Source: a virus (Duplodnaviria > Caudoviricetes). Taken from it: a stretch of 64,000 nt of DNA. Each line of letters starts with the position of its first letter. Position 1 is the stretch's first letter. Location: positions 1 to 64,000 of the IMG/VR virus record IMGVR_UViG_3300033120_000461; one strand, given 5' to 3'. This document shows, in pieces, positions 2 through 44,600 of this stretch. The notes under the pieces are model-generated. The model was not told the origin of the DNA. It made no database searches and saw nothing but the letters and a program-made list of their open reading frames with translations. Both the position numbers and the translations under genes were made by a program.

Positions 2-256
2 AAACTCCCTCTCGGACACAACATCAATCTGAGGATTGTAGGTTGGGTCTCGGATGAGAGGATTCAAGCGGTTGTAGTGCAGGGTCTCCCTTCGGATCGT
101 TTGGACCCACACATCACGATAGCCCTCGCCCATGGGGTAGAGCCCTCCTACAGCAAAGAACTACTGGCAAAAGGCCACACAGAAACCCAAGGTCCCTCTA
201 TCACAGGGAAACTTGGATATTACAACGGAAAAGTCCGTTTCGTACTTGAGACCTAA
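2..256 (+). CDS. 5'-truncated 2H phosphoesterase-like protein (C-terminal part)
   Basis: Frame from base 2 is open to TAA at 254-256 and reads KLPLGHNINLRIVGWVSDERIQAVVVQGLPSDRLDPHITIALAHGVEPSYSKELL...; PHITIA followed by GVxPxYSxELL resembles the second HxT motif of tRNA-ligase-type 2H phosphodiesterases. Not in the ORF track. Confidence 0.6.
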   Translation, partial: KLPLGHNINLRIVGWVSDERIQAVVVQGLPSDRLDPHITIALAHGVEPSYSKELLAKGHTETQGPSITGKLGYYNGKVRFVLET

Positions 257-272
257 AACCAAAGGAACCAAC

Positions 273-869
273 ATGACAAATACAAGCAAGACCCCCACTG
301 GAATTGAGTTTTTGGACCGCAAAATTGGAGGGTTCCCTCAAGGATCCATCACACAGTTGGAAGGAGACGAACCTGACAGCCCCACACTCTTTGCCTTGAA
401 TGCGATTGGCAGCTGCCAACGTAATGGGGGGGTGGCGGTGTTTATTGATGTGGGGTTCAACTTCGATGTGGGTCTTGCGAAGTCCTTTGGGCTCAATACG
501 AAAGACCTTGTGACTCAGGTTGAGACCCGCACAGAGGCCTTCTCCGTACTTGAGCAGCTCTTGAGTCTTGGGGTCTTCGACTTGATTGTAATTGGGGCGT
601 CTTCGTACTCAGAAGTTGCTGACGGAAAGGCCATCAATCTCAGAACCCTGAATGCTGTGTCAGCAGCATCTCGGTGTTCTGTTGTAGTGATCCACCGCCG
701 CTCGCAGCATCCTGCTATGGATGCTGCCCTCACTCATGGCTCAAGGCTCATCCTCCAAGTGTCTCCAGGTTCCTCTGAGAAGGAAGTGGTCACACAAGTC
801 ACGAAGAGCCGAGACGTCAACATGAATTTCGCTTCTCAATTCCCTGTGTCCCTGAACAAGACCTCCTGA
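273..869 (+). CDS. recA: RecA-like protein with degenerate Walker motifs
   Basis: TPTGIEFLDRKIGGFPQGSITQLEG, GGVAVFID, LAKSFGLNTKDL and LLSLGVFDLIVI track the RecA core. Start moved to ATG 273 (AAGGA upstream) because the TTG-started extension overlaps the upstream gene. Confidence 0.7.
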   Translation: MTNTSKTPTGIEFLDRKIGGFPQGSITQLEGDEPDSPTLFALNAIGSCQRNGGVAVFIDVGFNFDVGLAKSFGLNTKDLVTQVETRTEAFSVLEQLLSLGVFDLIVIGASSYSEVADGKAINLRTLNAVSAASRCSVVVIHRRSQHPAMDAALTHGSRLILQVSPGSSEKEVVTQVTKSRDVNMNFASQFPVSLNKTS

Positions 870-964: not shown

Positions 965-2116
965 ATGCCTAACCCCAACTCACAAAGAGTCCTTTTTCCG
1001 GTTGGGGCCACTCCAGAAAGCATTCGTGCTCAAATCGGAGCCTTGGGTCCAGTACCAGACCCAGAATCTATCCCAGAACCAAACATTGGGGATGTTCCTA
1101 CTTGGGATGGTACATCATACATTCCACTAGCTGGAGGTGGTGGTGGAGGTACACCAGGACCACCAGGACCACCAGGACCACAGGGGATTCAAGGATTTCC
1201 AGGACCCCCTGGTGATGATGGTATTCAAGGGCCCCCAGGAGCAACTGGGGGCCCTGGTCCTCAAGGACCTCAAGGACCCCAAGGTCCTCCTGGGGCAACG
1301 GGAGCAACAGGAGCACCTGGAGCTGATGGTGTTGATGGCGCAACCGGACCACCTGGTGCTCCAGGTGCCACAGGCGCAACTGGGCCAGCTGGGGCTGATG
1401 GAGCCAATGCTAGCCCGTACTCAGGATTCCAGTCCTCGGCATCAACTGACTTCTACAGAGCTTCAGCAGCTCTGGTGTGTCCTGGTGCTGATGATTTTCT
1501 TGTTGTGGCGTTGGCAGTACCTTTCACAGGTAGGAATCTAGCCAAGATCCACACAATTGCAGAAAATGTGTCAGGTTCTTCAGGTTGGCGCCTTACATGG
1601 GGTTATGGGGCCGTGTTGTGTAACGTGTTTGATGCCACCAACGATTTGGTAGCGGCATCAATACCCACAGCTATTTTTGACCCCGTCCGTGAAGCTGGGA
1701 GGATGCTTATAGCAGCTCTACGGGTACGTCAGGTTGGCGGGTTCACTCAAGTCAGTTTGTGGGTTGGCCCAGCACAAAAAGCAGTGACAACAGGCCCAAA
1801 CCCAGGAGTTGCACCATCAACCGCAGGTTTACTTGCGGTTGGTTACGCTGACCTTTTTGGTGAGGGGGTAGCTCTTGATGCTGGTGTGATGGGTCTTGGG
1901 TACTACGAGGGAACTGTTACGGACGACACTCTGCGTGTATTGATGGGCCGGTGTGGCGCTGATGGGGCGTTGCCAACTGACGTCATTACGTGGACCACAG
2001 CTTGGTTGGGTTCAGATCTCGCAACAGTCTCATCCACAGTCAATGCTTCTGTTGGTACTGGGACCCTCAACAGACAAGGAAGCCCTACAACTATTACAGG
2101 GTTCTTTCCTTGGTGA
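965..2116 (+). CDS. Collagen-like protein with a C-terminal beta-rich (LamG/ConA-like) domain; probable virion fibre
   Basis: Uninterrupted Gly-X-Y run followed by a ~240-aa globular domain. Confidence 0.75.
1148..1408 (+). repeat. 29 consecutive Gly-X-Y collagen triplets
   Basis: [15 protein letters not shown] ... GAD GAN counted from the translation. Confidence 0.9.
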
Positions 2117-2912
2117 TGAGAAGCTCTTGCATCTTCTCATGATGTGTTGACCTCATCGATATCGACCCTACCTGAAAACCATACTTCAGACTCAAAATAC
2201 GCACTTCAGGAGTGTCGTCGTACGTGAGTAGCACAGAGCCATTCACGGAAGACATCCGTTGAAAGAGACGCTCATGGTCTACTTGGTTGTGGGTGTATAA
2301 CCGAGCACCAGCCTTCTTTCCTCCAACAGTGTATGGTGGATCAACAAAGAAAAAGGCACGAGAGTCCTGGGCATATTGGTCAAGAACTTCGAACGCATCC
2401 GATTTCTGGAACGTGATTCGATTTCGGATCTCCCACAGGTCTTGAATCCTCCGACACAAGGTTTCTGGGTACCAGCGCGATTTCAAACCCTGTCCAGACT
2501 CTCCAGCTTTCAATAGACCTGCCCCCGCAGCTAGGATTCCACCTCGTTGCATTCTGTTTTTCACGATGGTGCGGAAAGCCTGGCTTCGAGTGTCTTGTGG
2601 TATGTCATCCAAGACTGCTCGCACATCCTCTAGCGTGACATTGAAGGTCATTATCCGACCACACAGCCATTCAATGTCCGCAAACTCTCCTTGAAGGATG
2701 GTCTGCCAGACAGAGGCCACGTCGTCATCCAGCTCACCTAGGAAGACATGGTCAACTAGACCCTCATACGCTGCTGTCAGGCCCACCATCGCCCCGCCAG
2801 CAAAGGGCTCCACAAGTACAGACACCCGAGGTGAATCCAACAAGCGTTGGCGAACCTCGGGTACCAGCCAGGACTTCCCCCCAGGGTATCGAAATGGGCT
2901 TAGGTGTTTCAA
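2094..2912 (-). CDS. dam: D12-class N6-adenine DNA methyltransferase (Dam-like)
   Basis: [17 protein letters not shown] (motif I) and FFVDPPY (motif IV). Confidence 0.9.
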
Positions 2913-3175
2913 CTGTGGTGTCGGGGCAAAATCTTGAGGATTCGTTCTGAGGCGATGAGCCTTGGCTCATCTTCCCCGTCCACTCGAACAGGTATTGTTC
3001 GCCATACGAAATGGATCCCCATTTCTGACTTCAACGTCTCTTTGTGTAATGGTCCTTGAACCACTGCCACATGCTGAGATTCAGTCTTGTTTGCCCCAAG
3101 CAAGACAAGCAGCTTTGTACCCACAGGGAATTTTGGGTCGATGGAGTGGATAGTTCCGTACTGGTGTTTCGTCAT
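2909..3175 (-). CDS. Hypothetical protein
   Basis: 88-aa ORF, overlap-coupled to dam. Confidence 0.65.
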   Translation of the reverse strand: MTKHQYGTIHSIDPKFPVGTKLLVLLGANKTESQHVAVVQGPLHKETLKSEMGIHFVWRTIPVRVDGEDEPRLIASERILKILPRHHS

Positions 3176-3180
3176 TTTTC

Positions 3181-4098
3181 CTAGAGGTCTCTGGGCATGA
3201 GTTCACGGGCTAGGGTCTTGTCCCATATGTCCGAGCACTCCCACACAACTTTCCTTGTCTTGTCGTATCTGTTGGAGCCATCTCCAGGTGCATCCATCCA
3301 GTTCCCGTACTTCTTCTTCCCTAGTGCTCGGATCAACCCACGGCTGAAAGCCACAGGGTCTTTGATTCTCAACATAGGTGCGAGACACCCACGAGCAGTG
3401 CCTGGAGCATTCACGCTGAACGCGTGATACACACACATAGCAAGTTCCACTTCGGGTGGGAGGTCCTTGGCGGGTAGTCTGATGATGGAATCAGTCTTCT
3501 TTGGTTTCGGAAGAAACGCATTGTAGATGGATAGTTCGTCTGCACTATTTCCTTCTGCAAGCCATTTCGCGGCGTAGTTAGACTGAGCCGCAAAGGTCCT
3601 TGGAGAGGAGAGGAGAGTGGCAAATCGGAGCGCCCACTTCTCTGCGGACACGGCCGCTTGCCCTCTACGAGGTACTGCCCCGCTCTCTGAGCCGCTCAAA
3701 GCCAATCGAATGGCTTTTCCTGGCACAAGCTTCCCAGTTTGGGTGAAACGGAGCTTCCCATCTTGAGCGAGGACCCATCCAAGTTTGTTGAATTCATCCC
3801 AAACAGGGAGGAATTCCGTTGGTGCTTGAACAGAAATGTCGTGAAGGAGGGCAAAGAATGTCCCTTGGGACAAATCTTTTGGAGACACTGAGATGTTGTG
3901 CAGCAGACCTCCACTCATGCCACATCCATCATAGCTCTGGACAGTTCCCCAGGCTCCAGCCTCGATGCGAGCTGCCAAGTAGACAGCTCGATCTGAATGA
4001 ATCTCTGCATCTACGGGGGTCATAATCTTGGGTCCTCCTCGGGTAAGGAAACCAGAGAAGGACTTGTATTGGACCCAGCGTGCAGTGATGTTTTCCAT
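3181..4098 (-). CDS. Lysozyme-like muramidase (putative endolysin or virion lysin)
   Basis: RIEAGAWGTVQSYDGCGMSGGLLH fits the lysozyme-fold E...YD...SxG..H/Q pattern. Start moved to ATG 4098 (MENITARW), just after the upstream stop. Ends in TAG. Confidence 0.5.
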   Translation of the reverse strand: MENITARWVQYKSFSGFLTRGGPKIMTPVDAEIHSDRAVYLAARIEAGAWGTVQSYDGCGMSGGLLHNISVSPKDLSQGTFFALLHDISVQAPTEFLPVWDEFNKLGWVLAQDGKLRFTQTGKLVPGKAIRLALSGSESGAVPRRGQAAVSAEKWALRFATLLSSPRTFAAQSNYAAKWLAEGNSADELSIYNAFLPKPKKTDSIIRLPAKDLPPEVELAMCVYHAFSVNAPGTARGCLAPMLRIKDPVAFSRGLIRALGKKKYGNWMDAPGDGSNRYDKTRKVVWECSDIWDKTLARELMPRDL

Positions 4099-4099
4099 C

Positions 4100-5854
4100 T
4101 CAGACCTTACCCTCCTCAGAGCGATTCTGGGCTTCAATGCTTTCCCATCTGGCGCAGAGGAACTGGTAGTATTCAAAGGGGGAAAGTGCATTTTCGTACA
4201 AGCCAATAGCCCATGCGTCGTTCACCTCCACAAGGGCAGTCTCACCCGTGGACAGGACGCCTACGTCAAGGGCAAATGGGTGGCCCAACTCTTCAAACAG
4301 AAGACGCGCCATCTCTTCCACAATAGCCATGTCGGGCTTAGGTGCGTCATCCTCACCATCCTCATCATAGCGACCTGATTTCAGGTTTCCAGGACCTGAA
4401 ACGTAGTATCGGTACTCAGAGACAAAATTGACTTTTGAGGAAACCCACAACATGGTCTGAGGCGGAAGGGAGTCAAAGACCTCTCTTTCCTTCGAATCAG
4501 ACTGCAACAGAAATCCTGTGAAGGTCTTGAGTTTGTCTGCTGGCTTCACGAACACGTCCTCAGACATGTTCAGATTCTCCTTGGTTGTCTGTTGGACATC
4601 TCGAAGCAAGAACCTTTGCAGCACATCAGGATAGCAATTCCAGACTGGTAGTTTCAGACCGAGTCTCGCCATGACTGCTTGAACAAACTCGACAGTCCCC
4701 ACAGGAACTCCATCAAGTTTGGACGTGTCTAGGGTAGGCACATCTTCAAGTTTGCATTGGTAACGGACGATGGTGTCATGGAGCATAGATGCATGATGCA
4801 CCTTGCTGACCTCGTAGGATCTCCCTTCCTCCATGCTTTGGAGGAGGACACTTCTAAGCTTTGGGCTCGGCACTAGTCCTGAGGCAAACTTGAGTGCTCC
4901 AAGTGCGCCCTTCACAGAGTGGGAGAACCACCAGACTTCCTTTCCAATAATCAGCTTGATGGGCCCCTTGAGCTGACCTATCTGTACCTCAACCGAAGGT
5001 TCACTGGATCCTTTCGGAGGGGTGTGGATCGTCCAATTGACTCGATTGTCTGGCTCCTTGAAGTACGGACACCAGTCATCGAAGACCACTCCCAGACCCA
5101 AATGCTTGGCGGGTTCAAAATGCTTGGGGATGTTCTCTTTGATAGCCAGAAAGATGGGGTCTGAGGCCTTGTATGCTGCCCATTCTTCATCTCTCTTCCG
5201 AGATGCAGCGGCACTCCTCTCCCGTCTTTCTTTCTCAGCAGGTTCCATCCATCTTTCCAGAGTCACCAAAGACATCCCCTCTCGTCTGTACTTGACCCAC
5301 GCGACTACCTTGTCTTCTTCATCCGACTCTTCCCCAGCCTCATCGTAGGAGTAGCCCATTTCGAAACAGGTGATTGTTCCGTCTGGGCTGATGTCAGGTT
5401 CCTTTGAGCCTGACATCAAAGGTTCCTCTTCCTCGTTGGCTGGTTTGATCTCCGGCCACCCTTCCATAGGGTTCGAGAAGTCAAAGAATCGATTCTCATA
5501 GGGGCAAGCCCAATGACAACCATCTACGACCAAGCACTGAAGTGTTGGACTCCACTTTGAACTTGCCCAACAAAATCCATCAGGTGACATGATGTCGACC
5601 CTCTTTCCAGTGTCTAGTTCAATGACTGTCTGCCCCATGTAGTGAGAACCACACACCAGGTAGTCATGCCCGTTGGGGTGCCCTTCTACAAAAGCGTAGG
5701 GGAAACTCCCATAGTTTCGGTTCACAGTCTCAATGACTTCACCATCAGAGCGACTCACAACTCCTGTTGCATAGTCCCAACACCCAGGCCGAGTCGCTTG
5801 CTTTGAGACCTCCAATTGGTAGTGGCCACTTGGACTCATGATTGTCTTTGTCAT
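4100..5854 (-). CDS. Fusion of an unknown N-terminal domain and a C-terminal ATP-grasp domain (R2K/DUF4343-like)
   Basis: C-terminal FVKPADKLKTFTG, SEYRYYV and ALDVGVLSTGETALVEVNDAWAIGLY. Start moved to ATG 5854 because the track's first 26 codons coincide with the tRNA. Confidence 0.75.
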   Translation of the reverse strand: MTKTIMSPSGHYQLEVSKQATRPGCWDYATGVVSRSDGEVIETVNRNYGSFPYAFVEGHPNGHDYLVCGSHYMGQTVIELDTGKRVDIMSPDGFCWASSKWSPTLQCLVVDGCHWACPYENRFFDFSNPMEGWPEIKPANEEEEPLMSGSKEPDISPDGTITCFEMGYSYDEAGEESDEEDKVVAWVKYRREGMSLVTLERWMEPAEKERRERSAAASRKRDEEWAAYKASDPIFLAIKENIPKHFEPAKHLGLGVVFDDWCPYFKEPDNRVNWTIHTPPKGSSEPSVEVQIGQLKGPIKLIIGKEVWWFSHSVKGALGALKFASGLVPSPKLRSVLLQSMEEGRSYEVSKVHHASMLHDTIVRYQCKLEDVPTLDTSKLDGVPVGTVEFVQAVMARLGLKLPVWNCYPDVLQRFLLRDVQQTTKENLNMSEDVFVKPADKLKTFTGFLLQSDSKEREVFDSLPPQTMLWVSSKVNFVSEYRYYVSGPGNLKSGRYDEDGEDDAPKPDMAIVEEMARLLFEELGHPFALDVGVLSTGETALVEVNDAWAIGLYENALSPFEYYQFLCARWESIEAQNRSEEGKV

Positions 5855-5855
5855 A

Positions 5856-5930
5856 TGGTCTTGGTGGGGTTCGAACCCACGGCTGTACTGGTTTAGAATC
5901 AGTTCCCTTGGACCACTCGGGCACAAGACC
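5856..5930 (-). tRNA. tRNA with CUA anticodon (amber suppressor)
   Basis: GGTCTTG TG CCC GAGTGGTCCAA GGG A ACTGA TTCTAAA CCAGT ACAGCC GTGGG TTCGAAC CCCAC CAAGACC A: 7-bp acceptor stem, D-arm with GG, anticodon loop TT-CTA-AA, perfect 5-bp T stem, A73, CCA not encoded. Confidence 0.9.
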
Positions 5931-5959
5931 ATGTCGGCTTCAAGGTGCCGAACAACCTG

Positions 5960-6271
5960 TCAACTGAAAGCTAGGGGGAGATCTTGAACTAACTTACGCC
6001 CTGAAGGGGCAATTGCGATTGCCGCAAGTTCATTACCAAGGTCAGGTTCTGTGAAAAGGGAAACTGGCACGCCAGCTTCCCTCGTACGTTCTGCAAGAGA
6101 GGTGAGAGAGGTTAGATCATCCGTCTCCAAGAGTACAAGGGTGTTGGATGTCCGATACCACTCATCGTCAATCGTGCCAAACCCCGCTCCGAACTCACGA
6201 AGAGCATGACACAACATAGCAGCCCGAAGACCTTCCTTGAGGTCCTTGCGGGAAACAAGGAAGAGCTTCAT
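5960..6271 (-). CDS. pth2: PTH2-family peptidyl-tRNA hydrolase-like protein
   Basis: KLFLVSRKDL...GLRAAMLCHA...W...NTLVLL...FTEPDLGNELAAIAIAP matches the PTH2/PTRHD1 layout. Confidence 0.75.
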   Translation of the reverse strand: MKLFLVSRKDLKEGLRAAMLCHALREFGAGFGTIDDEWYRTSNTLVLLETDDLTSLTSLAERTREAGVPVSLFTEPDLGNELAAIAIAPSGRKLVQDLPLAFS

Positions 6272-6702
6272 GCAGCCTCCTGGACAAATGGCTTTCGTCC
6301 CTGACGAACCTTTGCCGCTGCCTCAGCAAGATGCTTTGCAAACTCCTTGCTTTCTTCCTCGGAGGGTTTCACTGCCATCCAGAGAGCTACTTCATCCTTC
6401 AAACCTGGGTTCCCAGCTGCGGCTGCGATGGCCGATGCTGAGACACTTGGCTTCTTGGTATTGCGCTCGACTTCCCAGTATCTTGCTCCACGCAGGAAGG
6501 CGTAAGCCAGTGCGAGAGTTCGGATCTGGTTCTTGTGGAACCTACTCTGGTACCAAAAATTGGTCAGAGTCTTCAGACGAGATGGCTCGCTGATAGGTGT
6601 GGATTTCTTGTAGGCCACACGTTCCTTGGTGGTCTCTTGCTTGTTGTGGACGGTCTCAGCAAGCGTTGTCTTCAGCACTACGATCTGGTTGTTCTTTTCC
6701 AT
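6268..6702 (-). CDS. Conserved phage hypothetical protein (LAYAFLRGxxY motif)
   Basis: RTLALAYAFLRGARYWEVE motif, AGGAG SD upstream, ATGA overlap with the pth2-like gene. Confidence 0.8.
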   Translation of the reverse strand: MEKNNQIVVLKTTLAETVHNKQETTKERVAYKKSTPISEPSRLKTLTNFWYQSRFHKNQIRTLALAYAFLRGARYWEVERNTKKPSVSASAIAAAAGNPGLKDEVALWMAVKPSEEESKEFAKHLAEAAAKVRQGRKPFVQEAA

Positions 6703-6815
6703 GGGGTATCTCCTAAAGGTTTGGTTGGTTCACGACGAAATGTTGTCATGGCCAAGTCCTTGGGAGGTCCACGGGGGAGATTTACCTACGTGTGGTGCGA
6801 GATCATTCCCAACAT
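6678..6815 (-). promoter_or_regulatory. Putative leader peptide ORF with in-frame amber (codon 10) and RGPP motif
   Basis: ATG TTG GGA ATG ATC TCG CAC CAC ACG TAG GTA AAT CTC CCC CGT GGA CCT CCC AAG... = MLGMISHHT*VNLPRGPPK...RS*, overlapping the SD and start of the 6268-6702 gene. Confidence 0.55.
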
Positions 6816-6909
6816 CTAAACTGGATTTCGAGTTTGTCTAGGGTCACTGTGGAAAAAAAGCGTAACATGAGACGTTAGACCCTCGGACCCCAACCAAACC
6901 CAGAAAGAA

Positions 6910-7260
6910 ATGGCAACTGTGTCTGAACCTACAATGGACCAATGGGAGACCCTATCCTACGAGGATCGTGTCACCTACCTCCGAAAACACGGCCAGTCTG
7001 GGGGTTTGGACCTGACAATGGACCAATGGAAGACCTCTATAGGTCAGATTCTGGGGGTCAACTCAGAATACAAGGACCGTGTCATCCACATCAGGAAACA
7101 GGGTCAGTCTGGAGGACTGGAACTGATCCGCGTTGAGAATAGGAATCCAGTCCTCATATGGACTGCTCAAGGAGAACTCATTCGTACTCACGGTGAGTTC
7201 AGGTTCGTCAAGGATCATATCCTGAGGCAGATGTCTGAAAACCCAACTTGGGTCCCCTGA
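6910..7260 (+). CDS. Hypothetical protein with an internal duplication
   Basis: Two MDQW...DRV..RK.GQSGGL.L units. Confidence 0.7.
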   Translation: MATVSEPTMDQWETLSYEDRVTYLRKHGQSGGLDLTMDQWKTSIGQILGVNSEYKDRVIHIRKQGQSGGLELIRVENRNPVLIWTAQGELIRTHGEFRFVKDHILRQMSENPTWVP

Positions 7261-7263
7261 AGT

Positions 7264-7578
7264 ATGAGCAAGCTAGGACTCAGCAAGTCAGACTCCGAAC
7301 TACTGGAAGAGATTCGGGGAGTACCACGACCAAGAACTCAGGGTTTTGGGTACCGAAATCCAAATCAACCCATGAACCCCAGTTACGTAGTAGATCCTGC
7401 TGTGGGCGCTCGTTGGGTGTCCAATAGGATCTACCCAAAGCCTTGCGTGATTGAAATCCTAGAGGTAAGCCCTCAAGGAACAACCATTACCGCAAAAACA
7501 TGTGGGTCTAACCGGACACGGAAGATCCACATCATCACCCTTCGTAGCCACTACAAGCCAGAACCCTTGGAGACCTGA
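7264..7578 (+). CDS. Hypothetical protein
   Basis: 104-aa ORF in a tightly packed plus-strand run. Confidence 0.65.
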   Translation: MSKLGLSKSDSELLEEIRGVPRPRTQGFGYRNPNQPMNPSYVVDPAVGARWVSNRIYPKPCVIEILEVSPQGTTITAKTCGSNRTRKIHIITLRSHYKPEPLET

Positions 7579-7580
7579 CC

Positions 7581-8072
7581 ATGAGTGTAGACACCAACAT
7601 TTACCTTGGCCCGTACGCTAGGTTTCCATACACCCCGAAGACTCATGCAGTGCCGGTCCAACGCTGCTCTAACGTCACATGCACACGTCATGTTGATAAG
7701 TACGCAAACTACAACTCGTACTGCTCAGACTGTGGCGCTCCAGTTACAAAGCAATTTCGTACCTCTGATCCACAATCACCTGATGTGAACTCTCTCCTAG
7801 ACCGGAAAGAGAGAGTGGTTGAACTTCACGTCGACCCTAAGAACAACATCCTATATGTGTGTTCGAATTTGGTGCGACCCAAACCAGACCGCTCACTCAT
7901 GCTCGATTTCACGGATGGGTACACAAATGGTCCGGTGCCCATTACCCCAGAATTGATTGAGAGTGAGAAGGCCTACTTCGAGAAAGAGTTCGAAGAGGAG
8001 CTTGCCACACTGGGGAAAGCATTGGGCAGTCCTGCTGAAATCATGTGGGGATACCACATGTACCATAGTTGA
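7581..8072 (+). CDS. Hypothetical protein with a zinc-ribbon-like motif
   Basis: CSNVTC...YCSDCG. Confidence 0.7.
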   Translation: MSVDTNIYLGPYARFPYTPKTHAVPVQRCSNVTCTRHVDKYANYNSYCSDCGAPVTKQFRTSDPQSPDVNSLLDRKERVVELHVDPKNNILYVCSNLVRPKPDRSLMLDFTDGYTNGPVPITPELIESEKAYFEKEFEEELATLGKALGSPAEIMWGYHMYHS

Positions 8073-8075
8073 ATC

Positions 8076-9143
8076 ATGAAACCCGTACTTCTCACACGAG
8101 ATCAATTTCGCTCAGGTGTTTTCGAACGAGACTCCAATAGGTGTGTCGTGCGCAATGCACTTGGTGTTCGCTGCGAGCAAGAAGCAGCGGACGCTCACCA
8201 CATTCTTGAACGCCGTCTTTGGTCTGATGGTGGCTACTACCTGGACAATGGTGCTTCGGTATGTCCAGACCATCACATTGAGGCTGAGCAGACCTTGATA
8301 GGATGCACAGACCTGCGTGAGTGGGCTGGGATCACAAACCTAGTCATCCCCGACCACCTTTACAGAGATCAGGGCTACGACAAATGGGGGAACCCCCTTC
8401 TTCCGAATGGCTCTCGGATGTGTGGTGAGCTTTTCTACGACGAATCTGTGCAGAAGATCCTGGCCCCTGTGCTGCACCTGTTCACGGTACGAGTAAAGTA
8501 TCCGAGGACGTACCATCTCCCTTGGTCTCCTGGGGTCACCAAAGACGATCGTGTCATCGCTGCCAAGGACCTGGATGCTCTTTTGAATATGGAGCTAGTC
8601 GTGACGGCCAAGATGGACGGGGAAAACACAACCATGTACCGAGATGGTCTTCATGCCCGCTCCTTGGACTATGAGCCTCATGGGTCTCGGGACTGGGTTC
8701 GAGCGCTCCATGCTCGGGTGGCTCATGAAATCCCAGAACGTTGGCGTATTTGTGGGGAGAACCTTTTCGCAAAGCACTCGATCCACTACTCCAATCTGGA
8801 GTCTCAATTCTTGGTCTTCTCCATCTGGGATGGTCTTCGCTGCCTGTCTTGGGACGACACTGTCGAGTATGCAGGAATGCTGAACCTTCCAGTTGTACCT
8901 GCCCTCTCAAGAGGCTCGTACCTCAGGACCCAACTTCAGGCCTTGGGCCCAACTCTGGTGAAGGATGGGTACCAGGGAGACCCCTGCGAAGGCTTTGTTG
9001 TTCGTCGAGCAGATGAGTTCCAGTATGGGGATTTCAGACGTTCAGTGGCCAAGTACGTCCGAGCCAACCACGTACAGACACACGGACACTGGATGCGCAA
9101 TCAAATCACCCCCAACACAACCCGCCGTGATGACAAGCACTGA
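8076..9143 (+). CDS. HNH domain fused to an ATP-dependent RNA ligase
   Basis: N-terminal VFERDSNRC...DAHHI...LDNGASVCPDHH (HNH); C-terminal KYPRTYHLPWS, VTAKMDGENTT (motif I), ICGENL, CEGFVVR, VAKYVR. Confidence 0.85.
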   Translation: MKPVLLTRDQFRSGVFERDSNRCVVRNALGVRCEQEAADAHHILERRLWSDGGYYLDNGASVCPDHHIEAEQTLIGCTDLREWAGITNLVIPDHLYRDQGYDKWGNPLLPNGSRMCGELFYDESVQKILAPVLHLFTVRVKYPRTYHLPWSPGVTKDDRVIAAKDLDALLNMELVVTAKMDGENTTMYRDGLHARSLDYEPHGSRDWVRALHARVAHEIPERWRICGENLFAKHSIHYSNLESQFLVFSIWDGLRCLSWDDTVEYAGMLNLPVVPALSRGSYLRTQLQALGPTLVKDGYQGDPCEGFVVRRADEFQYGDFRRSVAKYVRANHVQTHGHWMRNQITPNTTRRDDKH

Positions 9144-41616: not shown

Positions 41617-44600
41617 ACCTTCTCAGTACCCTTCACCAAGGTCAAAAGACGCTGTTGCTCGGCCTTACGGCGTGGTGCTTCTTCGTCGAATCGACGGATG
41701 CTCGCCAAAGTACCAGACACTCGGTCTGTGCGAACTGTGAGCCATGCCCAACGAGAGTTTCTGAGTTGGTCACGCTGCTCAAGAGCTTCTTCGATCCTAT
41801 CTGGCAACGTGGGTCGACCAACGCCATTTTCAAAGTCAGCATATGGAGGGTCAAGTGGGGAGAATGGAGGGCGAAGATAGTCAAGTCTGAAGTCAAGACC
41901 CCAAAACCTGCGGTCCAGAATAGATAGACAGTCAGAGGAATTCGCGAAAGGGGACTCTCGAACAAGTCCCTCAAGGCCTGCGATGTAGGCATCGAAGAGA
42001 ACACCAAGGCCATCCAAGGGATCTGATGTGTCTCCAAGGTCTGCAATGTGTTCATCTCTCTGGAAGACGAAGTACGACCCAGATTTCTCAGCCTCGAAAA
42101 TCCCTCTGAGTTCTTCCATCCAAGAGAGCATTCTCTCTCGGGTAGCTAGAATCAGCTCCACAGTCTCCTCAGTGAGGAATGTGGTAGGTCGAATCACCTT
42201 GTACGCAAATGGAGCAATCGAGAGCCAATTGGACGCAAAGGAGTTTGTCCCATCCGCATAACCCGTTGGACGCAAATCCATTTGACCTTCCAAGCCTCCT
42301 GACAAGAGAGACCCGTGAACCGTTGGGTAAACAGCATACTGCCCATCTATGATGGCATCTGCTGATGTCCGATTACCTGCCAGGACTCCGCCCAAAGGCA
42401 CAACACCAAGTGTTGTGGGTGTCACGGTCAGGACCTTGTAGTACCCTCGATTGTCATCGATGCGATGTGGTGAGCCTGGGACATAGGTCGGAGCCCCTCG
42501 TGGGAGAACAGAAGTGTCCCCAAACGGTCGAACACCACGTTCTGGAGTAGGTGCAAAACCCGTGGGTCCTCTAAGAGGTCCTGCTGGGTCAACAACCAGA
42601 ATGTCCCCCTGTTGAATCCCAAGGGCTCCGAAATCGAGTGTGTCAGTCAGTATGTTGACGCTTTGGTCGTAGGCTACTTGAGGATCTACGTCGGCCACAT
42701 AGGCGACTGAACCTCCTACTTGGGTGATAAGGTCAGCTGGTCTGTCCAGAAGGATCCGGTCTGTCGCAAGTTCCAGGAGTTCTGCACAAGACTGCTCATG
42801 TGGCACTGGTGCAGACCTCAGGTAGATCTCAAATCTAGTGCCTGGACCCACCAAATTCAGAGCATTCTTTGAGAGCGTGAGGGTTCTACCAGTCTCTACT
42901 ACAAGAACCTCGGCTACAGCCACAACTTCACCACTCAAGTTGGACAAAAATCTTACAGAGTCTCCAGCACGGATCCCAATGTTCGAGTTTGTGAAGTCCC
43001 CAAGCTGAGTAGCCCGACCACCTACAAGTGGTTGAGGCGGGTTTTGTGTGTCCACGGGTTGTGCAACGAGAACTCCAGTAGACCCTGAACCTGTGAATGT
43101 CTGAACGATTCCACGACGAATCTCGTAGACAAATCGTAGGTCACGCAGTGAATCCGCCAGTGCTCCGAAGGAGTCATGGAATCTTCGAATCCGACGCACC
43201 TCAACCTGACCTACCTCCAAAAGAGACCCTCCACTTGGACCTACGCCTGAGATGTAGGATGAGATGTTTCGAGTCCCAATTTCAGAGGTGAGAAGAGAGT
43301 GCCCTGCATCAACAACGTTGACTCTCGTAGCAGCCAGATCATTCCCCGAAACAGGAAAAGAGGGCTCCACAAAAAGTCCATTTTGAGCATGGTAACGAAG
43401 TTCAAAGATGTCGTTGGGGTAGAGGCATGCTGGTCCAGCACCGTGAATCGTCGTCCAGGAGAAATTGCTCAAATCCAAACCACCTGGGATGTTGTCGTAA
43501 ACAGGCTCATCAAGTTGGAGGAACGATGTCGAAGCCACCTTCACTTTTGAGTACACCGAGATCTGTGCAGGTCCTGGTGGTACGCCCACCAACGTTGCAA
43601 TTCCAGCATCGTAGGTGACGGACCCAAATGAGCTACGGGATGCAGTCACTTCCCTAAACCCAAAGTAGAATTCTGTTCCTAAAGGAGGGCTTGGCCAGAC
43701 TGTGTACCCTGGGAGATTTTGAGCGACTGACCCTTCCTGCCAGACATTTACAGGGAGAATTGTCATCCCAGACACACGAACACCGAACGCGGCCGCGTTC
43801 TGGAACGCTGTGAGTGTGATTGGGTTTCCAACCGCATCCTGAAATCCTGAAAGGCCTAGGAACCTGGAACCAGGACCATCCAGAGAGGAGTAAGCAGCAG
43901 AGACTGCGCTTCCAGCACTCCCCACCAAAGACTCATTCAAAATCAGGAACACACGTCCTGAAGATGGGAAGGCAAAAGAAGAAGCGACAGGTGCAGCATT
44001 CAGGTCTTGAAGTGGGCTCAAGGGAAGAAGAGATGAGACCGTTAGGTCTGATCCAACCATGCTCACAACCGTTGGGAATCTGAAGTCGAACCACCCTGCA
44101 TCCCCCACAGAAACCGTAAGGTCCAGTCGATGTCCTGGAAGGTCCAAAGGCGTGCTTTCTACAGCTGCCCGAACAAGATACGTCCCCACTTTTCCAGAAC
44201 CCACAGGGGCAGAAAGAACCAAAAAGGGATCATAAACTCCCTTCATGATGGCCACATCACCAGGTTGAACCCGACCCAAGCTACCTGTGTGTGTTGTAAT
44301 TGGGATGAATACGTTCTCCCCCACTATGGAGAATGGAGCCCCTGGTCCCTGTAGCTCTCCAACGAAGAACGTCCCATTGAGAATTGGGCCTACACCATCT
44401 TGGCGAGAGGATGGAATTGCCGTGAAAGTAATGTCAGTGGCATCGATTGGGATGTTGCCCTGACCTTCAAACCCAAGAACCCTGAGCGAACCAACTCCAG
44501 CCGCCCAAGTCCCAACCCCGTTTACAGAAGGTGTCAAATTTCGAGTTGGGAGGGTGAATGGGAGTCCGTCATTGATGTTGTCTATGTCGTTCACCAAGTT

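Follow-up and report, generated by a model that had tools for sequence, protein, structure and literature searches.

A conserved phage leader with an amber codon ahead of an RGPP arrest motif: a candidate sensor of decoding by the phage's own suppressor tRNA

Why would a phage that appears to read its genes with the standard genetic code carry an amber-suppressor tRNA, and which codon would that tRNA decode? The question is raised by a locus on the minus strand of a 64,000-nucleotide stretch of phage DNA (Caudoviricetes), hereafter the window, which is the first part of the 73,282-bp IMG/VR record IMGVR_UViG_3300033120_000461. CheckV puts the completeness of this record at 14%, which marks it as a piece of a very large phage genome. 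The window has a GC content of 52% and a single tRNA (ARAGORN), whose anticodon is CUA. This tRNA belongs to a module in which every element lies on the minus strand, with intervening gaps of at most 29 nt, and which opens with a short upstream open reading frame (uORF) carrying an in-frame UAG ahead of codons for Arg-Gly-Pro-Pro (RGPP). We propose that readthrough of this UAG gates a translational switch in the leader, by which ORF144 and the gene of a protein related to peptidyl-tRNA hydrolase 2 (Pth2) are turned on when a ribosome stalls on RGPP, a reading that we hold to be likely while leaving real room for error. An initial annotation of the window had already described a co-directional run of leader, ORF144, Pth2-like gene, tRNA, ATP-grasp gene, lysin and dam, and all of these elements were found in their places. 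The features on which the argument turns are the following.

6786-6815, minus strand: first part of the leader uORF, with ATG at 6815-6813, nine sense codons (M-L-G-M-I-S-H-H-T) and the in-frame UAG at 6788-6786 (from the sequence and its translation with TAG read through)
6762-6785, minus strand: codons after the UAG, V-N-L-P (6785-6774), and the arrest motif R-G-P-P (CGT GGA CCT CCC, 6773-6762), which is also the strand pairing with the ribosome-binding site (RBS) of ORF144 (from the sequence)
6697-6776, minus strand: hairpin predicted to sequester that RBS (pair list of the minimum free energy, or MFE, fold)
6268-6702, minus strand: ORF144, the first gene proposed to be regulated, encoding a basic, all-helical protein of a conserved family with the motif LAYAFLRGxxYW..ER
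5960-6271, minus strand: Pth2-like gene, whose ATG overlaps the ORF144 stop codon as ATGA (PF01981, 26 bits against a cut-off of 23)
5856-5930, minus strand: amber-suppressor tRNA with anticodon CUA (Rfam RF00005, 56.8 bits over model positions 1-71; ARAGORN)

In the proposed mechanism, ribosomes would initiate on the short uORF and meet the UAG at 6788-6786. If release factor 1 (RF1) wins there, a nine-residue peptide would be released, the RGPP codons would stay paired with the Shine-Dalgarno (SD) sequence and AUG of ORF144, and the switch would be off. If the operon's tRNA(CUA) decodes the UAG, the ribosome would translate four more codons and then arrest on Arg-Gly-Pro-Pro; it would then cover the strand that masks the RBS, so that the RBS of ORF144 would be freed. 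Translation of ORF144 would follow, carried on to the Pth2-like gene by way of the ATGA overlap, and the switch would be on. The module would in this way report the activity of the phage recoding tRNA and tie two conserved proteins to that state. Read through the UAG, the leader frame next meets a UAG at 6680-6678 and a TGA at 6674-6672. No sigma-70-like promoter was found in 6816-6909.

The R[AG]PP motif occurs six times in the six-frame translation of the 73-kb record, and one copy therefore says little; the comparison with relatives is decisive. The window leader is the sole copy in the record that stands behind a short ATG-started frame and a UAG. A blastn search of the module region against the phage collection gave no match, and relatives were located via the Pth2-like protein, ORF144, an ORF144 profile and look-ups of single family members. 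The single ORF144 sequence had no match among viral contigs and the ORF144 profile none among genome contigs, hence there is no prophage or host lead; one alignment, A2, was too diverse for use in locus scans. Lineage counts given below refer to 13 lineages with readable DNA, in which ORF144 identity to the window is 32-51% where measured and GC content ranges from 32 to 64%. The more distant family members P0033, P0036, P0045 and P0019 stand outside the leader counts and were judged from gene tables, which list a coupled downstream gene of Pth2 size in three of these distant members and a PF01981 match in P0019.

In 13 of 13 lineages, the gene of the ORF144 family is preceded by a leader made of a uORF, a UAG and, after three to eight codons, RGPP:

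Window and L011-L013: MLGMISHHT-UAG-VNLP-RGPP
L003 and L047: MTLVNHHL-UAG-IRSA-RGPP
L004: MQPHLT-UAG-VRS-RGPP
L043 and L044: MQPHLT-UAG-VRS-RGPP
L014: MRMMVSMIWT-UAG-LHLA-RGPP
L018: MTWT-UAG-LHLP-RGPP
L019 (a 435-kb phage of 32% GC): MA-UAG-INI-RGPP-UAG
L039, L040 and L045: MNSHHT-UAG-VCFA-RGPP
L049: MTWT-UAG-ICSPP-RGPP
L053 and L054: MTWQ-UAG-LHLA-RGPP
L055: MIAHHL-UAG-VLPI-RGPP
L041 and L042: RGPP in the +1 frame after UAGC
L056: RGPP in the +1 frame after UAGA

Judged across these lineages, the arrangement is far beyond chance. The leader stop is UAG every time (13/13), and in the window genome open reading frames end in TGA 69 times, in TAG 11 times (about 13%) and in TAA 6 times. The base 3' of the leader UAG is variable (G, A or C), and the intergenic DNA outside the leader motif cannot be aligned between lineages. 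Moreover, the peptide past RGPP is not conserved and its frame ends at differing places, even between the window and its 92%-identical relatives; in L011-L013, the only departures from the window leader are a synonymous CTC-to-CTT substitution and an indel past the motif. As far as sequence comparison can tell, such loss of conservation past the core is the pattern typical of arrest leaders. The leader contains no hydrophobic, signal or membrane segment, with 9 residues before the UAG and 18 at the predicted stall. No further TAG-RxPP leader was found elsewhere in four genomes (G000-G003, described with the recoding question below), which gives one sensor per genome.

RGPP itself is invariant in all lineages and its codons change only at synonymous third positions. 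Across the 12 lineages that were folded, they read CG(T/C/A) GG(A/T/C) CCT CC(C/G/A/T), and the eight first and second positions never change; for bases that stand behind a stop codon, change restricted to third positions is a coding signature. The same bases take part in a helix. In the MFE folds of all 12 lineages, the CUCC of the two Pro codons pairs with the SD sequence GGAG of the ORF144 gene, and CGNGG pairs with bases around the ORF144 start codon. In the window these pairs are C6766-G6710, U6765-A6711, C6764-G6712 and C6763-G6713 (CUCC 6766-6763 with GGAG 6713-6710), and CGUGG 6773-6769 pairs with CCAUG 6704-6700, which holds the start codon. At the third base of the Arg codon, changes go together with changes in the pairing partner (U-A, C-G, A-U), and the same holds for the Gly and second Pro codons; CGU, for instance, is matched to an AUG start in both the window and L019, and CGC to a GUG start in L004. 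The duplex of each leader with its own RBS averaged -16.7 kcal/mol against -13.7 kcal/mol for cross-lineage duplexes, a difference reached in 0 of 20,000 permutations among lineages that are related to one another and not independent, which weakens the test. On this comparative evidence, the RGPP bases are under both peptide and RNA constraint. A second possible anti-SD sequence, AUCUCC, is present at 6776-6781 in the spacer codons between the UAG and RGPP and is complementary to GGAGAU at 6713-6708; L014 and L053 have an AUCUC similar to the window spacer, and a ribosome stalled on RGPP would cover both anti-SD segments.

The helix raises an explanation that needs no readthrough, in which a short uORF simply ends 5' of an RBS-masking hairpin and acts through coupling or helix melting, RGPP being a by-product of the anti-SD sequence. 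Indeed, CCUCC is a canonical anti-SD, and part of the conservation of the motif is therefore at the RNA level; the helix is real and co-varying, and the uORF is very short. Yet an RNA element alone would not account for variation confined to the third positions of CGN GGN CCT CCN in the 12 folded lineages, where CG and GG stay fixed although their pairing partners change. Nor would it account for a stop that is always UAG in genomes mainly using TGA, for a CUA tRNA nearby in 12 of 13 lineages, or for the L041 leader, whose 2-nt shorter spacer goes with a tRNA of anticodon GCUA and an 8-nt loop. In the folds, furthermore, a ribosome at the UAG leaves the RBS closed. We consider this explanation very unlikely.

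If the UAG is to be read through, a decoder must be at hand. In the tRNA(CUA) of the window, the cloverleaf is complete, the anticodon loop has 7 nt (UUCUAAA) and the anticodon stem is closed by an A-C mismatch. A CUA-type tRNA stands beside the module in 12 of the 13 lineages. In the window, L003 (two copies), L004, L019, L039, L041, L043, L044, L049, L055 and L056, it comes after the Pth2-like gene and has the same orientation; in L014 and L018 it is about 1.4 kb off and on the opposite strand, and a search of the 6-kb locus of L053 found none. The initial annotation had suggested looking for co-occurrence of the leader and a CUA tRNA with homologous genes, and these counts (leader in 13/13, tRNA in 12/13) bear it out. 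The operon's own tRNA(CUA) is probably charged and the decoder of the leader UAG, a reading to which the joint change of leader frame and anticodon in L041, described next, lends indirect support.

Two lineages depart from the simple triplet arrangement in an informative way. Compared with the related LHLA leaders, those of L041 and L042 have a spacer 2 nt shorter, and their uORF reads M-T-I-H-S-UAG with RGPP in the +1 frame; when UAGC is read as four bases, the frame becomes M-T-I-H-S-x-C-T-A-R-G-P-P. The accompanying tRNA has an 8-nt loop, CCGCUAAU, with the anticodon GCUA, in which a G precedes CUA and which is exactly complementary to UAGC. The L041 leader (2915-2955) and tRNA (3779-3853), like those of L042, thus form a candidate natural quadruplet-decoding pair. 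In L056, a four-base step at UAGA gives M-T-F-L-x-C-A-G-L-S-S-R-P-R-G-P-P; this leader (L056:3399-3450; the locus is on a 222-kb contig) holds two UAGs, in UAGA and UAGC, each of which shifts into the RGPP frame. The L056 tRNA (5644-5719) has the loop CGCCUAA, with a G at the expected U33, a displaced CUA and no U before the CUA. Altogether, a U precedes CUA in 10 of 10 lineages that have a tRNA and RGPP in the 0 frame, and is absent in both +1 lineages (2/2 versus 0/10; exact test, p about 0.015). The core of the initial annotation, namely that the leader senses amber readthrough by the phage's own tRNA, and controls ORF144 and the Pth2-like gene, gains support from this match of quadruplet frame and anticodon, as well as from the conservation of the leader, the synonymous-only change in RGPP and its pairing with the RBS.

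The same observations bear on the possibility that the main input is RF1 activity, or general termination efficiency, in the infected cell, with the tRNA as a constant competitor only. Decoding of UAG is always a competition between RF1 and the suppressor, and the leader therefore reads their ratio. In keeping with this possibility, the base after the UAG varies between G, A and C, with no special termination context kept, and the tRNA is distant and on the opposite strand in L014 and L018 and was not found in L053. Linkage of the tRNA in 12 of 13 lineages speaks against it, however, and the +1 variant with its matching GCUA anticodon implies that the leader tracks a decoding property of the tRNA and not RF1 alone. 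An input of this kind seems to us unlikely, if still worth keeping in view.

Given a leader that would sense readthrough, in which direction would it act? In structures of RAPP-stalled ribosomes, the P and A sites are at the two prolines. RBS accessibility was computed as the unpaired probability over positions -13 to +3 with ribosome footprints placed on the leader, and the means were:

Free mRNA: 0.32
Footprint centred on the UAG: 0.34
First Pro codon of RGPP in the P site: 0.53

With the ribosome on RGPP, accessibility goes up in 11 of 12 lineages. These folds suggest that the stall uncovers the RBS, so that readthrough would mean ON. SecM/secA, MifM/yidC2 and ErmCL/ermC have the same geometry as the phage leader, and in each of them the stall turns expression on. 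The initial annotation had held that the sign of the regulation cannot be read from sequence; the folds suggest that it can.

Readthrough-gated arrest might have another outcome, such as repression, transcriptional control through a block of Rho or altered termination, or a mere slowing of the mRNA, with no activation of ORF144 translation. The small opening of the RBS in the window and the decrease in L053 (both detailed below) would fit repression or transcriptional control, and the tRNA is downstream on the same transcript, so that transcriptional control would affect tRNA output; an engineered UAG switch in the tna leader does act through Rho (PMC6412442). Against such an outcome, the strand that masks the SD and start codon consists, in all 12 folded lineages, of the arrest codons themselves, in the activating geometry of SecM, MifM and ErmCL, and no conserved rut-like or terminator element was seen. 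We regard repression or transcriptional control as decidedly unlikely.

Several observations weigh against a readthrough-gated ON switch. For the window, the folds predict only a small rise in RBS accessibility (0.41 to 0.49), and in L053 accessibility falls when the ribosome is on RGPP. From a MAFFT alignment of 11 leaders, RNAalifold obtained no more than a trivial 2-bp helix and missed the long-range one, because the 3' registers differ between lineages; the evidence for pairing therefore consists of single-sequence folds and the comparison of own with cross-lineage duplexes. The SD sequence of the uORF is weak or absent in several lineages, and RGPP is predicted to arrest after a nascent chain of only 18 residues with no export signal. 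On the side of the tRNAs, that of L056 has no simple match to UAGA or UAGC. In L039 (4443-4516) and L049 (4741-4814), the tRNAs have 8-nt loops, AUUCUAAC and CCUCUAGC, with a nominal anticodon UCUA, and yet their leaders have RGPP in the 0 frame after UAG-G and UAG-A; these tRNAs may read both triplets and quadruplets. Among the proteins, the loop of the Pth2-like protein aligned to D-A-G-x-T of the archaeal enzyme 2zv3 is shorter than in solved Pth2 enzymes. Finally, only 14% of the genome of the window phage is in hand and 86% is unseen.

This last point leads to the question of recoding. The phage might be amber-recoded in the unseen 86%, or use programmed readthrough in some genes, the leader being one more UAG-containing gene, and in phages that are recoded, in-frame stops are indeed limited to late genes (Borges et al., preprint 10.1101/2021.08.26.457843). 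Four genomes, G000 and the three relatives G001 (97 kb), G002 (76 kb) and G003 (195 kb), were compared through all-frame translations with TAG as X. The unfiltered search for in-frame TAG was dominated by antisense frames; after their removal, no credible in-frame TAG was left in the proteins shared by G000-G003, giant structural-type ORFs included. In the window record, giant ORFs of 3599, 1728 and 1138 aa are open with the standard code (table 11), and coding density did not rise when TAG was taken as sense (coverage 0.943 versus 0.940). A crude test on GC content at third codon positions (GC3) suggested that, in the high-GC relatives, some coding signal persists beyond TAG stops. This signal was rejected as a sign of recoding; it is explained by antisense ORFs and gene-junction geometry, with same-frame neighbour genes after TAG as against ATGA overlaps after TGA. 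With the standard code, coding sequence fills 93% of G003, the 195,355-bp record behind L018, which has a completeness rating of 100%; the sole tRNA detectable in G003 is the amber suppressor (43676-43746). The non-conserved peptide past RGPP is likewise typical of an arrest leader rather than of a protein. Recoding thus appears extremely unlikely, in agreement with the initial annotation, which had taken the genome not to be amber-recoded. With no signs of recoding, the amber suppressor is therefore carried without an evident set of amber-containing genes, and the only conserved target found for it, with 86% of the window genome unseen, is the leader of its own module.

What would the switch control? 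ORF144 has no Pfam or PHROG match. Its family counts 126 cluster representatives at E<=1e-3, in which the invariant residues, reported as basic or aromatic, are R61, L65, E79 and W108, with R71-G72 and Y75 nearly invariant. An AlphaFold2 model built from 48 sequences (mean predicted local distance difference test score 94.5) is a long antiparallel helical hairpin (residues 2-70) with a small helical domain. Fold searches (Foldseek against the PDB, VIA-align wide and Atlas) returned generic helical hairpins only, and therefore no function of ORF144 can be inferred from them. The protein ends in Ala-Ala in 79 of 127 representatives (P0001-P0127) and in Ala-Glu in 17 more, against an alanine frequency of 13%. 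A C-terminal Ala-Ala recalls the determinant of ClpXP degrons; the end of ORF144 may be a degron of this type, or may reflect constraint from the overlapping start and SD sequence of the Pth2-like gene.

The Pth2-like gene adjoins the ORF144-family gene in all lineages whose DNA was read. The two overlap or abut in most of them, with an extra ORF between them in L003 and L039; given the ATGA overlap, they are probably translationally coupled. PF01981 is matched by 13 of 13 Pth2-like relatives (best 6e-10), and the family profile matches the solved archaeal Pth2 2zv3 (E 4e-10) and also 1rzw, 1wn2 and 1q7s. Within the group, H22-A23 and E75-P76-D77-L78 are invariant, the latter belonging to an invariant acidic E-P-D-L-G motif, and the lysines of the N-terminal G-K-G-K are absent. 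On these profile matches, the Pth2-like protein is a true but divergent member of PF01981. Upstream in L056 there are, in addition, a NUDIX gene and another Pth2 gene, which is longer than the first (175 aa; L056:1335-1862).

For the purpose of such a circuit, the reading that we favour, which is also the most speculative part of our proposal, is homeostasis or clean-up of suppression by ORF144 and the Pth2-like protein, which would give feedback. In arrest circuits already described, what is regulated acts in turn on what is sensed, and by this analogy a role of the two proteins in limiting or cleaning up suppression is therefore favoured. Candidate substrates, which we infer by the same reasoning, would be peptidyl-tRNA(CUA) dropped from very short peptides, the RGPP-stalled complex itself or ribosomes stalled after readthrough. 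A feed-forward checkpoint, signalling that the tRNA is ready, is equally compatible with the data. In the broader form, large standard-code phages would carry a self-contained decoding-state circuit, homeostat or checkpoint, in which the leader is the main conserved target of a non-canonical tRNA (an amber suppressor or, in some lineages, a reader of four-base UAGN), and in which ORF144 and the Pth2-like protein, switched on by the RGPP arrest, act back on the suppressor tRNA, peptidyl-tRNA or stalled products; this is a tentative proposal, with the chances rather against it than for it. If it were true, phages would have a natural homeostat or checkpoint for manipulation of the genetic code in the infected cell, by way of which recoded genomes might have evolved.

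Downstream of the tRNA, the run continues with four further genes:

4100-5854, minus strand: 584-aa protein with an N-terminal domain of no assigned function and a C-terminal R2K-clade ATP-grasp domain (about 4166-4660; PF18299, PF14243)
3181-4098, minus strand: lysin-like protein of 305 aa, with its true start at ATG 4098, 1 nt past the ATP-grasp stop (structural neighbours)
2909-3175, minus strand: ORF88, with no family match
2094-2912, minus strand: D12-class N6-adenine DNA methyltransferase, Dam-like (PF02086, 4e-12 over residues 9-243; phrog_56, 2e-31)

A terminator-like hairpin (2101-2083) follows the Dam-like gene. First-ATG ORFs running into the tRNA or the ATP-grasp gene were rejected as artefacts, the true starts being at 5854 and 4098. 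The ATP-grasp domain comprises residues 399-563 of the 584-aa protein (PF18299 1.9e-26, PF14243 1.3e-19), and the ATG of this gene (5854-5852) starts 1 nt past the 3' end of the tRNA, a spacing not kept in L003 and L055. Processing of the tRNA 3' end would leave an essentially leaderless mRNA for the 584-aa protein, and no SD sequence is visible within the tRNA. The lysin-like protein has no Pfam match; its Atlas neighbours (template modelling scores 0.6-0.66) are fused to LysM, PG_binding_1 or SH3_3 domains, some with GH46, and on these structural neighbours lysin is a fair lead for the 305-aa protein.

The initial annotation had counted the ATP-grasp, lysin and dam genes as part of the system, and here the comparison does not follow it. 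The R2K ATP-grasp domain, ORF88, Dam and an HNH-RNA ligase belong to the window lineage only, with no counterparts near the module elsewhere. Outside that lineage, the N-terminal domain of the 584-aa protein turns up behind the tRNA in L003/L047 and L055 only. L003, L043 and L040 have a lysin-like gene close to the module, whereas that of G003 is 80 kb off. A role in the timing of lysis finds no support, since the lysin-like gene does not accompany the module throughout.

On the plus strand, divergent from the leader, an HNH-RNA ligase fusion (8076-9143; phrog_24030 8e-121, PF09414 in L011) could serve in tRNA repair, and three small ORFs with no assigned function lie between the leader and this gene (6910-8072, plus strand). 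At the other end are a short RecA-like protein (213-869, plus strand; PF00154, N-terminal part only) and a collagen-repeat protein (965-2116, plus strand), the 3' end of which overlaps the convergent Dam gene by 23 nt (2094-2116). In other lineages, genes for NUDIX and NAMPT/NAPRTase (NAD salvage) proteins lie just upstream of the module in L053 (445-2828), and an AcrVA2-like gene lies upstream of it and divergent in L039 (88-1365).

How does this leader compare with known systems? In reporter assays, RGPP is the most robust arrest sequence among the RAPP-like cores and is refractory to elongation factor P (EF-P); it tolerates different N-terminal contexts, is avoided in proteomes, and uORFs with RAPP or RGPP precede genes of many functions (PMC12992588). 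As in ApdA, ApdP, ApcA, CruR and the Streptomyces uORFs, the conserved part of the phage uORF ends with an R-(A/G)-P-P core (PMC12992588, PMC10987492, PMC7897499). With these and the SecM/MifM-type switches, the phage leader also shares a regulated gene directly downstream, a non-conserved peptide past the core and arrest codons placed in a helix masking the downstream RBS. Unlike in the RAPP/RGPP peptides, however, the phage motif stands behind an in-frame stop or a four-base UAGN and would be reached only through recoding, and the phage operon carries the cognate tRNA. The input would therefore be decoding by the phage tRNA, and not protein export or a metal. In contrast to the monitoring substrates of Sec and YidC, the phage leader lacks a signal or membrane segment and would have reached only 18 residues when the ribosome stalls.

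Termination at a single stop codon is already gauged by other leaders and genes. prfB senses RF2 through a slippery +1 frameshift inside its own gene, and tnaC senses tryptophan by blocking the action of RF2. Like the phage leader, both are short coding elements in cis that gauge termination at one stop and set expression accordingly, whereas they have no trans-acting suppressor tRNA, RxPP arrest or RBS unmasking. The closest logic is found in engineered systems. A UAG placed in the tna or trp leader lets suppression control downstream genes (reviewed in PMC6412442), and these amber leaders, as well as suppressor-tRNA feed-forward circuits (PMC7969014), share with the phage module the requirement of UAG suppression for downstream genes. 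The engineered amber switches are laboratory constructs working via Rho-dependent termination, whereas the phage element is natural, conserved and predicted to act on translation initiation.

Four-base decoding also has its precedents. sufD and SufB2 are frameshift-suppressor tRNAs. Laboratory tRNAs that decode UAGN have 8-nt anticodon loops (PMC4764823), as has the tRNA of L041 and L042, for which the pair of leader and tRNA is natural; the window tRNA has a 7-nt loop. Recoded phages (crAss-like, Lak, Agate, Jade) possess suppressor tRNAs (Borges et al., 10.1101/2021.08.26.457843, PMC9523058), and Borges et al. noted standard-code phages with suppressor tRNAs and speculated on the sensing of suppressor tRNAs by phages. 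In recoded phages and in the phages described here, a phage tRNA(CUA) would compete with host RF1, but in the latter no in-frame TAG was found in shared genes.

Our literature search found no description of a natural stop-gated arrest leader, nor of a module joining a suppressor tRNA, Pth2 and a leader. If our reading is true, this would be the first natural gene switch with stop-codon readthrough by a dedicated tRNA as its input, reporting the genetic code in force, and it would give the puzzling suppressor tRNAs of non-recoded phages a concrete and conserved target. It would also extend RxPP arrest peptides past secretion and metal sensing and tie the widespread ORF144 family and phage Pth2-like enzymes to decoding control. 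Natural quadruplet decoding is suggested by the relatives whose leaders have four-base sites, and the parts are compact, orthogonal and suited to synthetic biology and genetic-code expansion. Set beside the systems above, the phage leader would be an arrest-peptide RBS switch of known mechanism whose input, a phage tRNA reading a stop codon or a four-base codon, is apparently unpublished.

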